This document shows, in pieces, positions 655 to 7,595 of a stretch of 64,000 nucleotides of DNA. The stretch comes from Acidobacteriota bacterium (GTDB lineage Bacteria; Acidobacteriota; UBA6911; RPQK01; JAJDTT01), in contig OZ246889.1 in NCBI GenBank assembly GCA_965231825.1, positions 2,319,443 to 2,383,442 on the forward strand, given 5' to 3'. A program made the position numbers and the translations under genes. Under the pieces are notes generated by a model. The model was not told the origin of the DNA. It saw nothing but the letters and a program-made list of their open reading frames with translations, and made no database searches. Positions within the stretch are counted from its first letter, which is position 1, and each line of letters begins with the position of its first letter.

Positions 655-754
655 ATCCGGTGACCTCTCAGATATCCAAAATCAAGATTCGATAGTTGGA
701 TCTTAATCCTCCGGTTCCCGCACTGTCAAATCGCCAGGCGCTCCACGACGGGCC

Positions 755-2044
755 TCAAGGACGACTCCTTTGGCCCTGCAGGGTCGCTTCCAGCAGGTCG
801 ACCCGGCGGCCGACCCGCTCCAGAAACAGGGTGTCCGTCTCCGTCTTCCAGAGCCGGCGCCCCGGCGCCTCGCCCGGGGCTTCCAGCGGCTTGGCCTGAC
901 TGTATTTGAGCCGGATGAGCTTCCGGTAGGCGTCGAAGAACTCCGCGGCGTCCTCTTCGGTGTCCCAGACGGAACGGATCCAGAGTGCCAGCCCCCCGTC
1001 GGCGCCCTCGTAGAGTTGCACCGAGTCGCCATCCCAGCCGCTGGCGGCGTCCCGGGCCGGATACTCTTCCAGGAACTCGTCCAGGACCAGCCGGAGCATG
1101 AATTCACCCAGGACGTTCCGGTAGATTCGTTCCCAACGCTCCCCGAGACCGGGCGGAAGTGGCGGGGGCTCCACGTGGGTCGGATCATCCCTCGGCGACT
1201 CGTACTTCTCCGGGTGGAGAATCTGTTCCGTGGATCGGGGCAGATCGGCATAGATTCGGTCCACACCCGTCCATCCGTGCCTTCGGACGTGGTATTGAAG
1301 GAAGCGTGCCCCCTGGACGTAGGGAAAGAGCAACGCTTCCTGAAAAAAGGCGGGAACCTCCCGGAAGACGTCGTAAGTTTGTCGTGCTTCCTCCATCTGG
1401 TCCTTCTGCATCTCGACGATGTCCGGAATGTCCAGGAAGCTCTGGCCCAGCGGCTTCAGAACGTACTCCAGCATGAGTCCCAGGCCCTCCCCCTCCACCA
1501 CTGCGATGTGGGCTTGGGTGGCGTCTTCGTTTCCCTCCACTCCCTCCAGCAGCCGGTCGAGATCGAAGTGCTGGTCCTGAAGCGCATGGGCCAGCTCATG
1601 GGCCATCACCGGCAGCTGATCCTCGACCGGAACCCAGTCGGCGACGTAAAGGGTCCGGGTCTCGGGGTCGTAGTAACCGGCCACCTGTTCGGTGAGTAGC
1701 CGCACCAGTGTCCCGCGATAGTCCAGAGACTCCGGAATCAGGCCCAGCTTCGCCAGCAGGCGCCGGTCGAGCTCGAGTTCCTCGGCCGGATACTCTTCAG
1801 CCATGCGGGCGAGGACGTAGTCGCGGATCTCGCCGCGGCTCCGAACTCCAGTCGCGACGGGTTTCGTGGCCGGAAGGTTGCGGAGAGCGCTGACCCTGGC
1901 CAGAACCGTCTTTGTGGAACGGCGCAACTCGTCCGCTGCCGATTTCGGGCCACCGGCGGCGCCAGGGCAGCCGATCGCCAGAATCCCCGCCCACAGCCAA
2001 CCGAAGCTCCCGCGGCGGTCCGCGATCCTTGCCCTCACCTGAAC
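755..2044 (-). CDS. Secreted HExxH zinc-metallopeptidase-like protein
   Basis: Long ORF containing a VMAHELAHALQDQHF (HExxH) motif. Signal-peptide-like N-terminus (..FGWLWAGILAIGCPGAAGG). A probable GTG start near 2038-2044 abuts the stop of the upstream gene at 2050. The annotated ATG at 2170 would overlap that neighbour by 120 nt. Confidence 0.55.
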   Translation of the reverse strand, partial: VQVRARIADRRGSFGWLWAGILAIGCPGAAGGPKSAADELRRSTKTVLARVSALRNLPATKPVATGVRSRGEIRDYVLARMAEEYPAEELELDRRLLAKLGLIPESLDYRGTLVRLLTEQVAGYYDPETRTLYVADWVPVEDQLPVMAHELAHALQDQHFDLDRLLEGVEGNEDATQAHIAVVEGEGLGLMLEYVLKPLGQSFLDIPDIVEMQKDQMEEARQTYDVFREVPAFFQEALLFPYVQGARFLQYHVRRHGWTGVDRIYADLPRSTEQILHPEKYESPRDDPTHVEPPPLPPGLGERWERIYRNVLGEFMLRLVLDEFLEEYPARDAASGWDGDSVQLYEGADGGLALWIRSVWDTEEDAAEFFDAYRKLIRLKYSQAKPLEAPGEAPGRRLWKTETDTLFLERVGRRVDLLEATLQGQRSRP

Positions 2045-2049
2045 TCCAG

Positions 2050-3531
2050 CTACCTGAATCGGAGAGAGTAGAGGTCCGCGTCCTTCATGACGAACCTCAG
2101 TTGAACCGGTTTGCCGGCAATCCTGCTCAGGGGCTGGTCCGAGGCCGCTCGGAGGTGACTCCGTTCCCACCTCACCGTGTGCTCGATCTCATCTCCCCAG
2201 ATCAGGGGGGACTCCTCCAGGGCGAATCCGGGCAGAGGCTGCCCCTCCTCGTCCTGCAGCTCCAGGCGGATGCTCCCGGCCGCGGAGGTGGCAAAGTTCA
2301 GAACCAGGTTTCCACCCTCGAAGACCAGAGGACGACTGACCCATTCTCCTCCCCTATGGTCCGCGTGGACGGAGACGAAGCCGTCGGTTCTCAGCACCAT
2401 CCGCTCCAGGTGGGCGCTGGGATAGGTGTAGTGGCGCGCCACGTAGAGCGACATCTCGTCGTCCGCGGTGGGGACCACGCCGGCCGAGGGCATGTTGGAA
2501 CGGTGAACCCAATTCCGGGGATTCCGGCCCGGACGGATGAAGGCCTCCATGAAGCGCCGGTCCCAATGGACGCCGTCCCGGCTGCTCATGAAGACCGCGT
2601 CGGAAACTCCCGCAATGGGAATGGTGGGATGGTAGGTCCTCCAGGGAACGAACCTCTTGGGAAGCGCGATTAAAATGTGCGGCGCCCGGAAATAGGGGTG
2701 GGTGCCATTGGTGTAGAGATGCTCTCGGGGAGTGCCGCCGTAGTCGGCCCAGGTTCCGGGCGTCCAGTCCAGAAAGTCCTTCGAAGTCGCGTACTTGATG
2801 CTGCGCACGCCGTCGGCATCCCGGTAGACGGCCGCGTATTGGCTTCGGACCGGATCCCAGAAGGGAACGTTCAAAGAGTCGAACTTGCCGTCCGATATGG
2901 CCGCTTCTTCGCTGGCCAGGCGCCACCGCTTGCCGTCCGCCGAGACGAACGACTTCAGGACGTGATTGGGCCATCCCGGTCCCGCGTTGCCCAACGCCTT
3001 GTAGCGTTCCTCAGGCGGAGCATCCGGATTGTCATCTTTGAACGGCGCGAAGCAGCAGGAGGCCATTCCCTTCCAGACGATGTTGTTGTCGGTGGATCCT
3101 TGGAATTCGACCAGGCCCAGAGAGGGCCGGGTCCACTCGATCCCGTCCCGGCTCTCCAGCAGGCAGGTGACCGATTCGTGTTCGGGGACGACCTTTTCAT
3201 CGGGACTCAACTGCAATTTGTCGGCGTAGTCCTGATGGCTGCTGCCCCGGTAGTAGAGGCGATAGCCGTCACCATCCCGGAAGACGGTGTGGTAGAGGCT
3301 CGTGGTCCCTTCCCACGGCTGGTCGAAGACCACGACCTTGCCGGCGGAACGCGGTCGCTGGAGTCGAAGTTCCAGCCCGTCCATGGATTCGATGAGGAAG
3401 TCGTCGACGAACAGTTCCAGGCGGGAACCGATATTGACCGGTTTTTCGGGTTCGTTCTGCTCGGCGGACCAAACTTCCGCCAGCGAGAGTCCCAGCGCCA
3501 ACGCCGTTGCGACCAACTTGCTCGTCCTCAT
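2050..3531 (-). CDS. Secreted beta-propeller glycoside-hydrolase-like protein (GH43/32/130-like fold, family uncertain)
   Basis: 493 aa with an N-terminal signal peptide (MRTSKLVATALALGLSLAEVWSA). Repeated W/D-rich blade-like segments (FWDPVRSQYAAVYRD, SSRDGVHWDRRF). No precise family could be assigned from sequence alone. Confidence 0.45.
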   Translation of the reverse strand: MRTSKLVATALALGLSLAEVWSAEQNEPEKPVNIGSRLELFVDDFLIESMDGLELRLQRPRSAGKVVVFDQPWEGTTSLYHTVFRDGDGYRLYYRGSSHQDYADKLQLSPDEKVVPEHESVTCLLESRDGIEWTRPSLGLVEFQGSTDNNIVWKGMASCCFAPFKDDNPDAPPEERYKALGNAGPGWPNHVLKSFVSADGKRWRLASEEAAISDGKFDSLNVPFWDPVRSQYAAVYRDADGVRSIKYATSKDFLDWTPGTWADYGGTPREHLYTNGTHPYFRAPHILIALPKRFVPWRTYHPTIPIAGVSDAVFMSSRDGVHWDRRFMEAFIRPGRNPRNWVHRSNMPSAGVVPTADDEMSLYVARHYTYPSAHLERMVLRTDGFVSVHADHRGGEWVSRPLVFEGGNLVLNFATSAAGSIRLELQDEEGQPLPGFALEESPLIWGDEIEHTVRWERSHLRAASDQPLSRIAGKPVQLRFVMKDADLYSLRFR

Positions 3532-3606
3532 GTCCGATCCTCCGGTGATGAAGTAGGCTCGCTGCCCCCGTTTCGGGATTCAGGCTAACTTGGTCCGGGC
3601 AGAGGA

Positions 3607-4294
3607 TCAATCGACACGGGTAATCGTCACTCTGGCGACGGGATTGCGCCAGTCGGACTCGGCCGCGTTGATGTCGCCGATTCCCTGAATCCCGTTGCTG
3701 ATATGGATGAAGCCCTCGGCTTCCGCAGGGTCGTGGACGAAGTGGCTGGCGCAGGGTGGACCCGGTACGAACTCGCAGAGTTCGGAGTTGGCCTCGCTTC
3801 CCGCGTCGTAGGCCGGAGCATGGACCGTCTTTGATCCGGGCGCAGAGAAGAACAGGATCGGCGCCAATGGTATCTGCACGCCGCTGACGGCAAAGAAGCC
3901 GTCGTTGGTCGTCGCCAGTTTGCCGACGACCGAGAGAGACCTGAAACCGCGCACGCTCGTCACCGTTGCCGTGGTGGAATGGCCGGGAGGTATGACTCCA
4001 TAGCCGATTGCGGAATCATGGACTTCCGGCATGGTCATCAGCGATTCCAGCAACGGCACCGGGTCGCCGTCCTCCGCCAGAGCCGCCAACTCGGGGCTGG
4101 CCTCCTCTCCAATCGTAAAGAGGGACGTCGATGCATCGTGAATCACCACCACCGGCGGGGTGATGATTTGATTCCGAGTCAGGTTCCGGATCGTGACGAG
4201 GTAGGTGGACTGAGCGAGGATCGGGGTCCCGCCCGCCACGCCGATTAACATTGCGGCACTGATCAAGGCGATTCGTTTCGTCGTCTCCTTCATA
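3607..4294 (-). CDS. Secreted spondin-N (reeler-like) domain protein, paralog 1
   Basis: Start MKETTKRIALISAAMLIGVAGGTPILAQ (signal peptide), then YLVTIRNLTRNQIITPPVVVIHD...LAALAEDGDP...ATTNDGFFAV...APAYDAGSE, a spondin_N-type pattern. The longer ORF track start at 4653 is non-coding selB debris; AAGGAG-like RBS upstream. Confidence 0.7.
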
Positions 4295-4379
4295 GGGTTC
4301 TCCCTGGTGGTTGACCGGTCTTCATCCCGGGAAAATCGGGTCCGCTCCGACCCGAAATCGCCCCCGGGGAAATAGCCGC

Positions 4380-4610
4380 GCTGAGCCTCAAAATACCACT
4401 CGCCCGTCTTCGTGGCGCCGCGTGACGCTCTCCCGATCCAGATACTCGGGAAACGGGATGTTGTCGAAGAAAAATCGGTAGGGGCTCCCCTTGTGGGTGC
4501 CTTCTTCTTTCCGAAGCGGAGCTCTATGGCGCCAGACGAAGCGTCAGAGGCTGGAAAGCCGCCGACCCGGATCAGTTCGCCTTGTTGGATGAGGGAAAAA
4601 AGACCTTTTC
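4380..4610 (-). pseudogene. Decayed duplicate of the selB 3' end (C-terminal winged-helix region) lying between the two spondin paralogs
   Basis: Nucleotide similarity to 5655-5900: gatcagttcgccttgttggatgagggaaaaaaga vs gaccagatcgccttgttggatcaggaaaaaataga; tcccgatccagatactcgggaaacgggatg vs tcccttccggtccagatactcgagaaacgggatg. Translation FSLIQQGELIRVGG matches the SelB C-terminus [14 protein letters not shown]. The middle is frame-disrupted. Confidence 0.55.
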
Positions 4611-4686
4611 GCAGAAACTGGCAGGGGCCGGCGAAATCGCCGGCCCCTGCCATGAGGGCGGAATCATTCCGCCTCCGTCAGGCGGT

Positions 4687-5385
4687 TCAATCCATCCGAG
4701 TGATCGTCACTCTGGCAACGGGATTGCGCCAGTCTCCATCGGCGGCATTGATGTCGCCGGTGCCCCGAACCCCGTTGCTGATATAAACGAAGCCTTCGGG
4801 TTCGGCCGGATCGTGGAGGTGACTCCCGCAGGGTGGACCCGGAATGAAGTCACACGATTCGGAGTTCGCCTCGCTTCCAGCATCGTAGGCCGGAGCGTTC
4901 AATGTCATGGAGCGGGGCCCCGAGTAGTAAAAGGCCAGTCGGACCGGCAGTTGCACTCTGCTGACGGCGAAGAAAGAGTCATTGGTCGTTGCCAGCATGC
5001 CCACGACCGAAAGCCATCTGTATTTGGGCGAGCTCTCCACCATCACGCTGGCCGATTGACCGGGCGGGATCACCGGCGGGTCGCCGGGACCGAAGGCCAC
5101 CGCGGTGTCGAATACTCCCTCCATTCCCATTGCCGCTTCCATAAGCGGCATGGGGTTTCCCTCTTCCGCCAGCGTCGCCAATTCGGCGCTCGCGGGCTGT
5201 CCGACCGAGAAGAGGGAGGTGGAGCGATCATGAACCACGACCAACGGCGGGGTGATGAGCTGACCCCGGGTCAGGTTGTGGACCGTGACCTGGAAAGTGT
5301 CCCGAGCGAGGCCGGTGGCGCCGGACGCCAGGGCGAGAGACACAATGATGCAGACCATGAACATCGGATTCATCCTGAATTTCAT
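4687..5385 (-). CDS. Secreted spondin-N (reeler-like) domain protein, paralog 2
   Basis: Start MKFRMNPMFMVCIIVSLALASGATGLA (signal peptide, AAGGAG RBS). About 50-55% identical to paralog 1 (FQVTVHNLTRGQLITPPLVVVHD...). The 3' ends are near-identical at nucleotide level (cgtcactctggc.acgggattgcgccagtc). Confidence 0.7.
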   Translation of the reverse strand: MKFRMNPMFMVCIIVSLALASGATGLARDTFQVTVHNLTRGQLITPPLVVVHDRSTSLFSVGQPASAELATLAEEGNPMPLMEAAMGMEGVFDTAVAFGPGDPPVIPPGQSASVMVESSPKYRWLSVVGMLATTNDSFFAVSRVQLPVRLAFYYSGPRSMTLNAPAYDAGSEANSESCDFIPGPPCGSHLHDPAEPEGFVYISNGVRGTGDINAADGDWRNPVARVTITRMD

Positions 5386-5669
5386 CGGATTCTCCTTTAC
5401 GTCATTAAAGTTTTCTCCGCGGGAAGCCCGGAGCCTCCAAACTCGCACTTGGCCCGTAACGCGCCGGTACCTGGCGTCCGTCTGTTTTGGGAGTTGCGCG
5501 GGAAGGAGGTTCGGTGCCGCCCGGCTCGATAAGTCTGCGGCCACATGCTTACCGTTGCACTGTGCACACTTTCAGTTTATGAACTTTTTGCGCTCACTGT
5601 GAATTGGGGACTTGATCCGGGTCAGGAGGGATTTCTTCGGAGCGGCGTCAGCGCATTTTGCGCGGAGGC

Positions 5670-7595
5670 TCAGAGAACGACTCTTCCGTCGCCCTGGCGC
5701 CGGGTGATTCCCTTCCGGTCCAGATACTCGAGAAACGGGATGGCGTACTTGCGGGTGATCCCGAGGGAGTCCTTGAACTCGGGCACCGAAAACGATCGTC
5801 CGGGAGGGAACTTGATCTTGACCTCGTTCTTGAGACGTTGGACTTGGGACGGGGTCAGGACCAATTCACCGCCGACCCGGACCAGATCGCCTTGTTGGAT
5901 CAGGAAAAAATAGACGTCCTCGGTCCGGTCCGGCGGGTGGTGCAGCCGACGCTTCAGCTCCGTGAGGGTCGGAGGCCGGGGGAAGCTCTTCCGGAGAACA
6001 CCCAGAAGGGACTGTTGCACTGCTTCCTGAGCCGGGTTCAGACGGGGTTCCCAACCTCGCCGCATGACGATTGAGCGGTCGATGCGGATCAGATCGCGCT
6101 GCTCCAGCCGCCGTAGCAGGAAATGGAAGTAGTCGATGCGGGCGGAATTCAGGAACCGGTTCCGAAGCTCTTCCTTGGGAACGCCCGCCGCCAGTGGGTT
6201 GCGAGCGTGGCTCTCGTCCAGGTGGGCGAGTATCGACGATTCCAGATTTCGAACAGCTGCCCGCGTCACCGCCAGAGGCGGATCCTGGGGCACCAGGTCG
6301 AATTCCGGAAGCTGCTGCAGGTGCCTGAGAATACGCCCCGCCGGAGTGCCGATCCGGGCAGCCGTTTCGTTGACGTCGATTCCCATTTCCCCTTTGGACC
6401 GCACCAGGAACTCGATCCGAAGCGGATCCGGATCACGGTTTCCGGCTTCGAGCCCCGAATAAAGCGCCTTCGCCGGTAGCAGCTCCCCGGGAAGATTCCG
6501 GGCCCGGTGCCTGGGCGGGACGTCGTCCAACACCACTCCACCTCCGACGGTGACGGGTGGAGAGTCCATCCGGAGAATGAATCGGTCTCCAATCCAGCAC
6601 ACGGTCGGCTGCTCCAGACGGAGTTGAGCCAGGGCCCGTTGGCCGGGTGCCACCGTTTTTCCTTCCAGCGGATACACATGGCCCTGCCATTCTCCGCTGC
6701 CGTGGTGAAACCGGACCGGAGTCCGACGTTTGAGCGGCCGCGGAGCGCTCTCCAGTACCTTGATCGAGGCGTCCAGAGAACGAGTCGGACGTAGACCTCC
6801 GGGTCGGGAAAGGACCATCCCCCGTTTCAGGTCGTCCTTGCCCAAGCCCATGAGATTCAACGCAGTCCGCTGTCCGGCCACGGCCTCGCCGGCCTCCCGG
6901 TTGAAGATTTCGATGCGCCGGACCCTGCCCCCCTTTCCGGAAGGATAGATAGCCACGGCGTCTTCCTTCCGGATGATTCCCGAGGTCAGGGTGCCGGTCA
7001 CCACCGTCCCGAATCCTCGCTTGCTAAAGACCCGGTCCACCGGCAACCGGAACACTCTTTCGTGCCGGGAATCACGGTTTGGCTCCGATTTGGCGGCCTG
7101 CTCGATCAACGCCCTTTTGAGGGACTCCAGGCCGCTCCCCGTAATACTGTCCACGGCGATGACGGGACCGTTCTCGAGGAAGCTGCCCCGCGTCATGGTT
7201 CGAATCTCTTCCCGAACCAGGTTCAGAAGTTCCGGATCCACCGAATCACACTTGGTGAGGACGACGATTCCTCGAGGAATGTTCAGGAGCCGGCAGATGT
7301 GAAAATGCTCCAGCGTCTGCGGCATGATCGATTCGTCGGCGGCGACGATGAGCAGCGCCAGGTCGATTCCCCCGATGCCGGCCAGCATGTTCTTGACCAG
7401 CTTTTCGTGCCCCGGCACGTCGACGAACCCGATGCGGCAGGAGCCCAGGGACATGTGGGCGAAGCCGATGTCGATGGTAATCCCACGCCGCTTTTCTTCC
7501 GCCAGGCGGTCGGCGTCGATTCCCGTCAAGGCTTTCAGGAGGGTGGTCTTGCCATGATCGATGTGACCGGCGGTTCCGACCAGTATGTCTCTCAT
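5670..7595 (-). CDS. selB: Selenocysteine-specific elongation factor SelB
   Basis: [25 protein letters not shown]... GTPase domain, EF-Tu-like beta-barrel domains and C-terminal winged-helix SECIS-binding repeats. Start taken at internal M13 (7595), matching the canonical SelB N-terminus. Confidence 0.9.

Follow-up and report, generated by a model that had tools for sequence, protein, structure and literature searches.

The standard route to gene duplication in bacteria is illegitimate or short-homology recombination, after which the paralogs diverge. In the textbook tandem duplication with a junction pseudogene, the 3' fragment of one gene is copied together with the gene downstream, yielding adjacent direct repeats; the fragment, startless and promoterless, decays, both full-length paralogs are kept and diverge, and later loss proceeds via deletion or inter-repeat recombination. 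The Acidobacteriota locus analysed here resembles this scheme in each of these respects, with a fragment derived from selB, the gene of the selenocysteine-specific elongation factor, and a downstream gene encoding a spondin-domain protein. It differs in being unusually old for a recognisable junction relic, predating a radiation in which the flank-gene dS rises to ~0.44, and in that the relic holds an insert of 98-142 nt and the leaders and post-gene segments of the two units can no longer be aligned. We consider an old in-situ tandem duplication of the selB tail and the spondin gene, followed by relic decay and later deletions in relatives, to be the probable origin of the arrangement. The type of event is ordinary and well documented here, making this a tidy case of genome evolution that reveals neither a new mechanism nor a new kind of system.

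The protein families involved provide the points of reference. Bacterial SelB comprises an EF-Tu-like GTPase, a domain 2, a beta-barrel and a C-terminal winged-helix domain (Pfam PF09107, SelB-wing_3) that constitutes its SECIS-binding end. Spondin_N (Pfam PF06468) is the domain of animal F-spondin and mindin, to which the bacterial spondin family NF038123 is only distantly related.

Direct repeats and paralogs at the selB locus

The window, that is, the whole stretch of 64,000 nt analysed (contig OZ246889.1, positions 2,319,443 to 2,383,442), carries the locus on its minus strand in the order selB (7631-5670), leader A (5669-5386, 284 nt), spondin-domain paralog A (5385-4687, 232 aa), a post-A segment (4686-4613) with a hairpin at 4652-4619, a selB-tail relic (4612-4388), leader B (4387-4294, 94 nt) and spondin-domain paralog B (4293-3607, 228 aa). 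A conserved 493-aa gene without a family match (3531-2050) follows downstream and serves as the right-hand synteny anchor in all relatives. The selB gene encodes 653 aa from a TTG start, relatives being called at 639-641 aa, and displays all the domains expected of bacterial SelB, each above its cutoff (GTP_EFTU 115.8, GTP_EFTU_D2 49, Beta-barrel_SelB 58.2, SelB-wing_2 40.8 and SelB-wing_3 66.8 bits).

An earlier, sequence-only reading of this DNA had proposed a tandem duplication of the selB 3' tail plus spondin gene, with a decaying selB fragment left between the paralogs, and had named an alignment of the two intervals and an inspection of orthologous loci as checks. Both checks, together with the SelB-wing_3 signature of the fragment described below, bear the proposal out. 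BLASTN of 3600-4690 against 4680-6000 returns three collinear direct matches on the minus strand, at offsets of 1077-1310 nt, so that adjacent homologous units lie in the same orientation. Two of the matches connect the relic with the last ~245 nt of selB and 10 nt past its stop (5915-5660), which form the 5' part of duplication unit 1: 4604-4559 pairs with 5915-5869 (89% over 47 nt, E 2e-12), and 4460-4378 with 5742-5660 (78% over 83 nt, E 1e-15), the latter covering the last 70 nt of selB, the stop codon and 10 nt beyond. The third match joins the coding sequences of the paralogs (4219-3604 and 5311-4684, 70% over 632 nt, E 5e-84). A repeat search of the window recovers the same repeat families (D1, D2, D3 and D5).

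Both paralogs match NF038123 from end to end at ~128 bits, far above its cutoff of 40 bits (A, 128.9 bits over positions 2-205 of 206; B, 127.6 bits over positions 1-205), and both are ~230 aa long with an N-terminal hydrophobic leader, which in A forms a signal-like segment. Against Spondin_N, with a gathering cutoff of 24 bits, the match is marginal for A (24.1 bits) and below the cutoff for B (18.3 bits). The sequence-only reading was thus right in recognising two same-strand spondin paralogs, whereas B spans 3607-4293 rather than 3607-4294 and the protein identity is 58% rather than 50-55%. Its description of the 3'-end DNA as near-identical does not hold either, as the actual identity is 81% over 134 nt. 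The excess similarity of these ends is explained by amino-acid conservation, with 77% identity at the protein level and only 56% at 4-fold sites; gene conversion was rejected as its cause, since the 4-fold identity there is no higher than elsewhere. Comparison with orthologs gives dN/dS ratios of 0.16-0.33 for A and 0.15-0.24 for B, and both genes are under purifying selection. The B protein is identical to database protein P0018. A search for sequence relatives in the PDB found none, a scan of JGI metagenomes found no close relatives (best match 48%), and a literature search on the function of bacterial spondin-domain proteins returned nothing.

The intergenic segments have distinct features. 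Leader A contains a sigma-70-like site at 5603-5574 and a core of ~125 nt (about 5471-5595); an alignment of 8 A leaders displays high conservation of this core in every A-carrying genome. Leader B shares homology over its first 10 nt with the 10 nt that follow the selB stop; an alignment of 10 regions upstream of B displays this leader as conserved in relatives, and in B-only genomes it adjoins the intact selB stop directly. The hairpin after A consists of a perfect 16-bp GC-rich stem (arms 4619-4634 and 4637-4652), and the RNA fold of 4600-4690 reaches -52.8 kcal/mol (z -6.1). It is terminator-like but lacks a U-tract (tail AGUUUCUG) and was not called by the terminator scan. The segment that holds it is retained after A in all A-bearing relatives.

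A dead selB fragment between the paralogs

The relic is ~225 nt long and matches the selB tail in its two blocks only. Its local alignment with the selB tail scores 41, while dinucleotide shuffles score 10.2±1.5 and none of 500 came as high; together with the BLASTN matches this upholds the earlier claim of nucleotide-level homology. The translation reads FSLIQQGELIRVGG in one frame and NIPFPEYLDRESVTRRHEDGRVVF, followed by a stop, in another. Block 1 (4612-4559) translates as (K)GLFSLIQQGELIRVGG. Block 2 (4460-4388), derived from the last 24 codons of selB, yields the peptide NIPFPEYLDRESVTRRHEDGRVVF, which scores 27.2 bits with SelB-wing_3 (cutoff 23.2) and matches positions 26-46 of the 47-position model; its stop at 4390-4388 falls at the same position as that of SelB. 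The sequence-only reading had already matched the translated frame to the SelB C-terminus. The orthologous relic of the related locus L016 reaches 57.3 bits with the same model. Similarity, collinearity and the stop at the homologous position hence all mark 4612-4388 as SelB-derived sequence.

Unlike SelB, the relic is a fragment only: it contains no GTPase, beta-barrel or other winged-helix domain, no start codon and no upstream selB sequence, and its block 2 is out of frame with block 1. The two blocks are separated by a middle segment of 98 nt (4558-4461) that is not selB-like and replaces part of the SelB coding sequence. This segment is common to the relics of L012 and L016 and has no other match in the fetched loci or in the window, where it is single copy. 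With its missing start codon, frameshift, deletions and 98-nt foreign insert, the relic is clearly dead, a piece of pseudogene rather than a SelB paralog. A literature search on selB-tail relics returned nothing.

The relic poses a practical risk for annotation, as it falls within an open frame that runs on into paralog B. The resulting 348-aa ORF (3607-4653) could be miscalled, and the relic itself could be misannotated as a second, partial selB.

Locus states in related genomes and age of the probable duplication

We compared 12 related Acidobacteriota loci, which share the synteny rplS-trmD-rimM-KH-rpsP-ffh followed, divergently, by selB-spondin-493aa-DUF8575-tatA. At the same syntenic site these relatives are A-only, B-only or A+B. 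L012 (OY764083.1), an independent chromosome-level MAG, has the same A-relic-B layout as the window at 96.9% identity. In L016, selB is followed by the beginning of leader A, a stub of A, the orthologous relic, which contains the same foreign insert, and then leader B and B; the L016 relic differs from that of the window by large indels. In L010, a truncated first copy follows the start of leader A, and after it come the hairpin, traces of the relic and B, and in L011 A is followed by the hairpin and B; the relic is almost wholly deleted in both, with B intact. Among the A-only loci, L003 retains, besides the hairpin, the relic's 5' edge together with the final 57 nt of B and its spacer, and L001, L004, L013 and L014 retain ~10 nt of the relic edge along with B's last bases and spacer. 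The selB tails of B-only loci have relic-type states at -15, -10 and in the +1..+14 flank.

Every branch of the clade therefore bears scars of the full A-relic-B layout, and all single-copy loci within it either have deletion scars or are explicable as repeat collapse. From these locus states, the scars and the independently assembled layout of L012, it follows that the A-relic-B arrangement is ancestral to the clade and not an assembly artefact. The latter possibility, a false expansion or mis-join across the repeat that the sequence-only reading had listed as a potential refutation, is practically negligible: nothing was found in its favour, the units are only ~70-89% identical and thus differ far too much for an assembler to mix them up, L012 shows this layout too, at 97% identity, and both the orthologous relic of L016 and a 2.4-kb Logan contig with A then B speak against it.

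The event is old, predates the radiation of the clade and is not specific to the window genome. In the neighbor-joining (NJ) tree, A and B each form a monophyletic clade with 100% bootstrap and are nearest to each other, grouping apart from P0022, P0025, P0028 and all other homologs. P0010 and P0011, two A-type homologs encoded on marine contigs, fall with A (92% bootstrap); the contig of P0010 is not syntenic. The A-B dS of 0.76-0.85 lies above the deepest flank-gene divergence of ~0.44, which places the A/B split before the radiation, but this dating is loose, as B orthologs reach a dS of 0.76 (window versus L009), equal to that of A versus B, and synonymous sites are noisy or near saturation. 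Paralog A of the window nests inside crown clade I, at odds with its flanking genes, indicating that alleles at the locus were moved by recombination. The 493-aa gene of L013 groups with that of L010.

Such a junction relic, still identifiable throughout a radiation of uncultured Acidobacteriota, makes the locus a clean and datable example, in which the relatives display every intermediate of the later resolution: A-only loci with a B stub, B-only loci and partial deletions.

Origin and later reshaping of the arrangement

According to the explanation we favour, a segment of ~1.1-1.3 kb, reaching from ~245 nt before the selB stop through the spondin-domain gene, would have been duplicated in tandem in the ancestor of the clade. 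Unit 1 would then have become intact selB with paralog A, and unit 2 the promoterless, startless selB piece with paralog B. The relic, which shows no function of its own, has decayed, gaining a frameshift, deletions and the 98-142-nt foreign insert; both spondin genes were retained under purifying selection and diverged to 58% protein identity. Related lineages appear to have resolved the locus later by deletion. In clade I the relic and B were probably deleted, leaving the relic edge and the B stub; in part of clade II, A was probably lost, most simply when the selB tail recombined with the relic, a route that leaves no scar; L016, L010 and L011 would represent intermediate deletions. The ancestral layout is kept most completely in the window and in L012, a close relative.

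Several observations run counter to a simple duplication. The sequence-only reading had regarded the two leaders as homologous with indels, whereas no homology is detectable apart from ~10 nt following the stop and from the RBS (local score 9, shuffles 8.9±1.4). Likewise, nothing detectable after B corresponds to the 75-nt hairpin segment that follows A, only TGAACC being common after both stops. The sequence following the first copy is thus not homologous to that following the second, and the boundary of the unit we infer is not clean. In addition, at 78-89% identity to selB the relic blocks have diverged less than naively expected of neutral sequence of the age of A and B (dS ~0.8). Explaining this would require ascertainment of the best-preserved blocks, a slowly evolving selB partner or gene conversion from time to time. 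The grouping of P0010 and P0011 with A, the search outside the clade described below and the placement of the window's paralog A likewise count against this explanation.

These same observations lend some weight to a different origin, which we regard as unlikely: the fusion of two diverged haplotypes, an A-type (selB, long leader, A, hairpin) and a B-type (selB, short leader, B). Illegitimate or Campbell-type recombination after DNA transfer would have joined them head-to-tail, trapping the B-type selB tail as the relic. Non-homologous leaders and 3' flanks, relic blocks less diverged than A is from B, and B-only genomes in which leader B directly follows an intact selB with relic-type last bases would all be expected from such a fusion; dS values near 0.8, however, would render neutral leaders unalignable in any case. 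The gene-tree incongruence, with the A of the window placed within the crown of clade I and L013 grouping with L010 in its 493-aa gene, shows that alleles at the locus are mobile. In the selB of the window, the clade-diagnostic sites switch from B-clade-like to A-clade-like over the last ~15-90 nt, a signal that comprises 3-6 sites. Against a fusion, A and B are closest to one another in the tree. The scars, moreover, occur in every branch, including all A-only genomes and L010, so a fusion would have to be as old as the clade and would be hard to tell from a duplication. We keep fusion as a rival because no single-copy, pre-duplication state is found beside selB outside the clade; our search there found no single spondin gene next to selB, and none of P0022, P0012 and P0010, the homologs from the outgroup, adjoins it. 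A recent horizontal origin of the relic from a B-only lineage is retained only as a rival: the relic is about equally similar to all selB tails (76-89%), and the diagnostic-site patterns are suggestive but concern very few sites.

Less probable still is that the relic was kept for a function, be it as promoter or 5' UTR of B, as an RNA element or as a small SelB-like winged-helix peptide. In favour of a function, B is subject to purifying selection (dN/dS 0.15-0.24) and is located downstream of a very stable hairpin, so that it may require a promoter of its own, and in B-only genomes any promoter specific to B would have to lie within the 3' coding part of selB. The promoter scan, however, found no sigma-70-like site in the relic or leader B. 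Between the window and L016, the identity of the relic and leader B amounts to 83-89%, which could be taken as conservation, but 4-fold sites of the flanking genes in the same pair are 77-87% identical; there is no excess, and constraint on the relic was rejected on these grounds. The large indels between the window and L016, and the near-total deletion of the relic in L010 and L011 with B intact, argue in the same direction. The broken reading frame without a start codon speaks against a peptide, and an Rfam scan of 3400-6000, covering the relic, its middle segment and the leaders, gave no match above sub-threshold noise. Overall, we found no evidence of relic functionality.

A further and more tentative proposal concerns the later history of the locus. 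The selB tail and the relic might have acted as a direct-repeat pair that repeatedly reshaped it, such that selB of B-only genomes now ends in relic-descended sequence after recombination excised A. If true, part of a pseudogene fragment would have been recruited back into a gene of an essential pathway. Combined with the exchange of A alleles between lineages, this would amount to a reversible-looking switching of copy number and alleles of a secreted pair, anchored on a housekeeping 3' end.

The locus is also of relevance to surveys of selenium traits, as L012, the closest relative of the window, carries only selB stubs at this site.

Layout and homology of the two units

Every gene of interest is encoded on the minus strand. 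selB (7631-5670), with the full SelB domain set by Pfam, is followed by a 284-nt leader (leader A, 5386-5669), paralog A (5385-4687, 232 aa) and a 75-nt segment in which repeat search found a perfect 16-bp GC hairpin (arms 4619-4634 and 4637-4652). Next come a selB-like fragment (the relic, 4612-4388), a 94-nt leader B (4294-4387), paralog B (4293-3607, 228 aa) and a conserved 493-aa gene (3531-2050). RNA folding of 4600-4690 yields -52.8 kcal/mol (z -6.1). Both paralogs match NCBIfam NF038123, "spondin domain-containing protein", at ~128 bits each (cutoff 40), and Pfam Spondin_N marginally (A 24.1 bits, B 18.3 bits; cutoff 24).

The sequence-only reading proposed that the selB tail and a spondin gene were duplicated in tandem, leaving a decaying selB fragment between the paralogs. 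Collinear matches, the relic and the loci of relatives support and extend this proposal. The two intervals align significantly by BLASTN in three collinear, direct matches between unit B (relic plus B) and unit A (selB tail plus A). These link the two coding sequences (4219-3604 with 5311-4684, 70% over 632 nt, E 5e-84), the selB end with its stop codon and 10 nt past it (4460-4378 with 5742-5660, 78% over 83 nt, E 1e-15), and the [14 protein letters not shown] region (4604-4559 with 5915-5869, 89% over 47 nt, E 2e-12). A separate repeat search of the window recovered the same repeat families.

Local alignment of the relic with the selB tail scores 41, a value reached by 0/500 dinucleotide shuffles (10.2±1.5). 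Translated, the relic gives FSLIQQGELIRVGG in one frame, while another frame gives NIPFPEYLDRESVTRRHEDGRVVF followed by a stop; the latter peptide exceeds the Pfam SelB-wing_3 gathering score (27.2 vs 23.2 bits), and the stop codon (4390-4388) occupies the position homologous to the selB stop. Between block 1 (4559-4612) and block 2 (4388-4460), alignment detected no selB similarity in the 98-nt middle segment (4461-4558). The relic lacks a start codon, its frame is broken, and it has suffered deletions and taken up a foreign insert; judged by its sequence, it is a dead piece of selB. Its identity between the window and the related locus L016 (83-89%) equals the 4-fold-site identity of flanking genes in the same two genomes (77-87%), so selection need not be invoked to explain why it persists; in all likelihood the relic is inert. 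The non-selB segment measures 142 nt in L016 (3645-3786), and within the window and the loci compared it matches nothing but the L012 and L016 orthologs of the relic.

A and B share 58% protein identity. Each is monophyletic with 100% bootstrap, and they are mutual nearest relatives. Orthologs of A give dN/dS values of 0.16-0.33 and those of B 0.15-0.24, indicating that both are maintained genes. The dS between A and B (0.76-0.85) lies above the deepest flank-gene dS (~0.44), which agrees with a split older than the clade radiation; dS is noisy in spondin genes, with window B vs L009 B likewise at 0.76. The 3' ends, previously described as near-identical, are 81% identical. Gene conversion as the source of this higher identity was rejected, as 4-fold-site identity is just 56%, pointing to amino-acid conservation instead.

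Locus states and scars among relatives

Homologs were placed by inspecting their genomic context and by scanning GTDB species genomes. Close homologs in the protein search are of a 232-aa A-type (74-96% to A) and a 228-aa B-type (80-100% to B). Their hosts are uncultured Acidobacteriota, and they share a single syntenic location: rplS-trmD-rimM-KH-rpsP-ffh, then divergently selB-spondin-493aa-DUF8575-tatA. The comparison of single-copy with duplicated arrangements, suggested by the earlier reading, gave A-only loci (L001/L002, L003, L004, L013, L014), B-only loci (L005-L008, L009, L015, L017), loci with both (window, L012, L011) and intermediates (L016, L010). In flank-gene trees, taken as a species tree proxy, clade I comprises the A-only genomes and clade II the B-only genomes, L016 and the window, with L010 outside both.

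The single-copy loci are not pristine. After A's hairpin, L003 carries the relic 5' edge, B's last 57 nt (ending in DWRNPVARVTITRID and a stop) and B's downstream spacer; in the other A-only genomes, ~10 nt of relic edge are fused to B's last bases and the spacer. L016 has intact selB, ~100 nt from the start of leader A, a short A N-terminal stub, the orthologous relic with the same non-selB middle segment (peptide at 57.3 bits on SelB-wing_3), leader B and B. L010 retains the leader A start, a truncated first copy, hairpin, relic traces and B, and L011 displays A, hairpin, RBS and B. These scars indicate that every branch descends from an A-hairpin-relic-leader-B ancestor, a layout that the window keeps almost intact. 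The truncated copy of L010 (5443-5811) is 77% identical to B over its C-terminal 66 aa, against 52% in a match to A that extends over 132 aa; following the leader A start with a more B-like C-terminus, it may be chimeric or gene-converted.

B-only loci show no scar, leader B directly following intact selB. Their selB ends have relic-type states at -15 and -10 and a true-tail type at -34, and the +1..+14 flank is relic-type (64% vs 37% identity). Such tail states are what one would expect if the selB tail had recombined with the relic, a possible route suggested by very few sites. By their sequences, the A-only and intermediate loci would be plain deletions with identifiable endpoints. Window paralog A nests in the clade I crown (94% bootstrap; concerning L004, L013 and L003) though its flanks are clade II, and L013 has a 493-aa gene that clusters with that of L010 (100%). 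These conflicts indicate that homologous recombination swapped alleles between lineages.

Origin of the tandem state

The locus is supported as an old tandem duplication with a surviving junction relic, resolved differently across the clade, and duplication in situ is its probable origin. Fusion of two already diverged haplotypes appears unlikely. It would account for the non-homologous leaders and 3' flanks of A and B, and for relic blocks better preserved than A vs B; an outgroup with a single spondin copy adjoining selB was also not found. Leader homology, claimed earlier, did not hold up (score 9 vs 8.9±1.4 for shuffles): apart from the RBS and the 10 nt that follow the stop codon, none was detectable. 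However, at dS near 0.8 leaders evolving neutrally should no longer align in any case, and the scars are universal, hence any fusion must be as old as the clade. An assembly artefact is ruled out, since L012 (OY764083.1), a separate chromosome-level MAG that aligns collinearly to window 690-5765 (96.9% identity), shows the same A-relic-B layout. The locus is a good textbook-style example, though of an ordinary kind of event.

Leaders and minor observations

A sigma-70-like site (5603-5574) sits in the ~125-nt core of leader A, which is almost invariant across A-carrying genomes; paralog A is probably driven by this predicted promoter of its own. Conservation of the core (5471-5595, minus) exceeds that of adjoining coding DNA. 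It contains TTCACA-N18-TAAACT and the palindrome TGTGCACA, matched no Rfam family, and may constitute a promoter plus operator or 5'-UTR element. The promoter scan revealed no such site in the relic or leader B. Leader B (4294-4387) harbors nested GC-rich inverted repeats (CCCGGGG…GGGTCGGAGCGGACCC…CCCGGG), kept in the window, L012, L016, L010 and L009; a 39-nt deletion upstream of B in L005, L008, L015 and L017 takes out most of them.

Sequence search gave no relative of solved structure for bacterial spondin-domain proteins, and we found no literature on their function. At an unrelated locus, the genome holding L017 has an extra distant spondin-domain paralog (L024, OZ253580.1, 3.96 Mb; 47% to A), which means that some of these genomes carry more than one copy of the family.

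In L012, the closest relative (97%), collinearity reaches only to window 5765 and selB is absent from the locus (3300-4000). Just its last ~96 nt, with an in-frame TAA, are left upstream of leader A, preceded at some distance by an unrelated gene that encodes a large repetitive protein. Breaks have thus occurred twice at the 3' end of selB, which may have been lost or relocated in the L012 lineage.

A 348-aa open frame (3607-4653, minus) begins just past A's hairpin, crosses relic block 1 and leader B, and continues into paralog B; gene calling could mistake it for a protein with an N-terminal extension. Because relatives differ there by non-triplet indels, the frame is probably open by chance, in DNA that is GC-rich.
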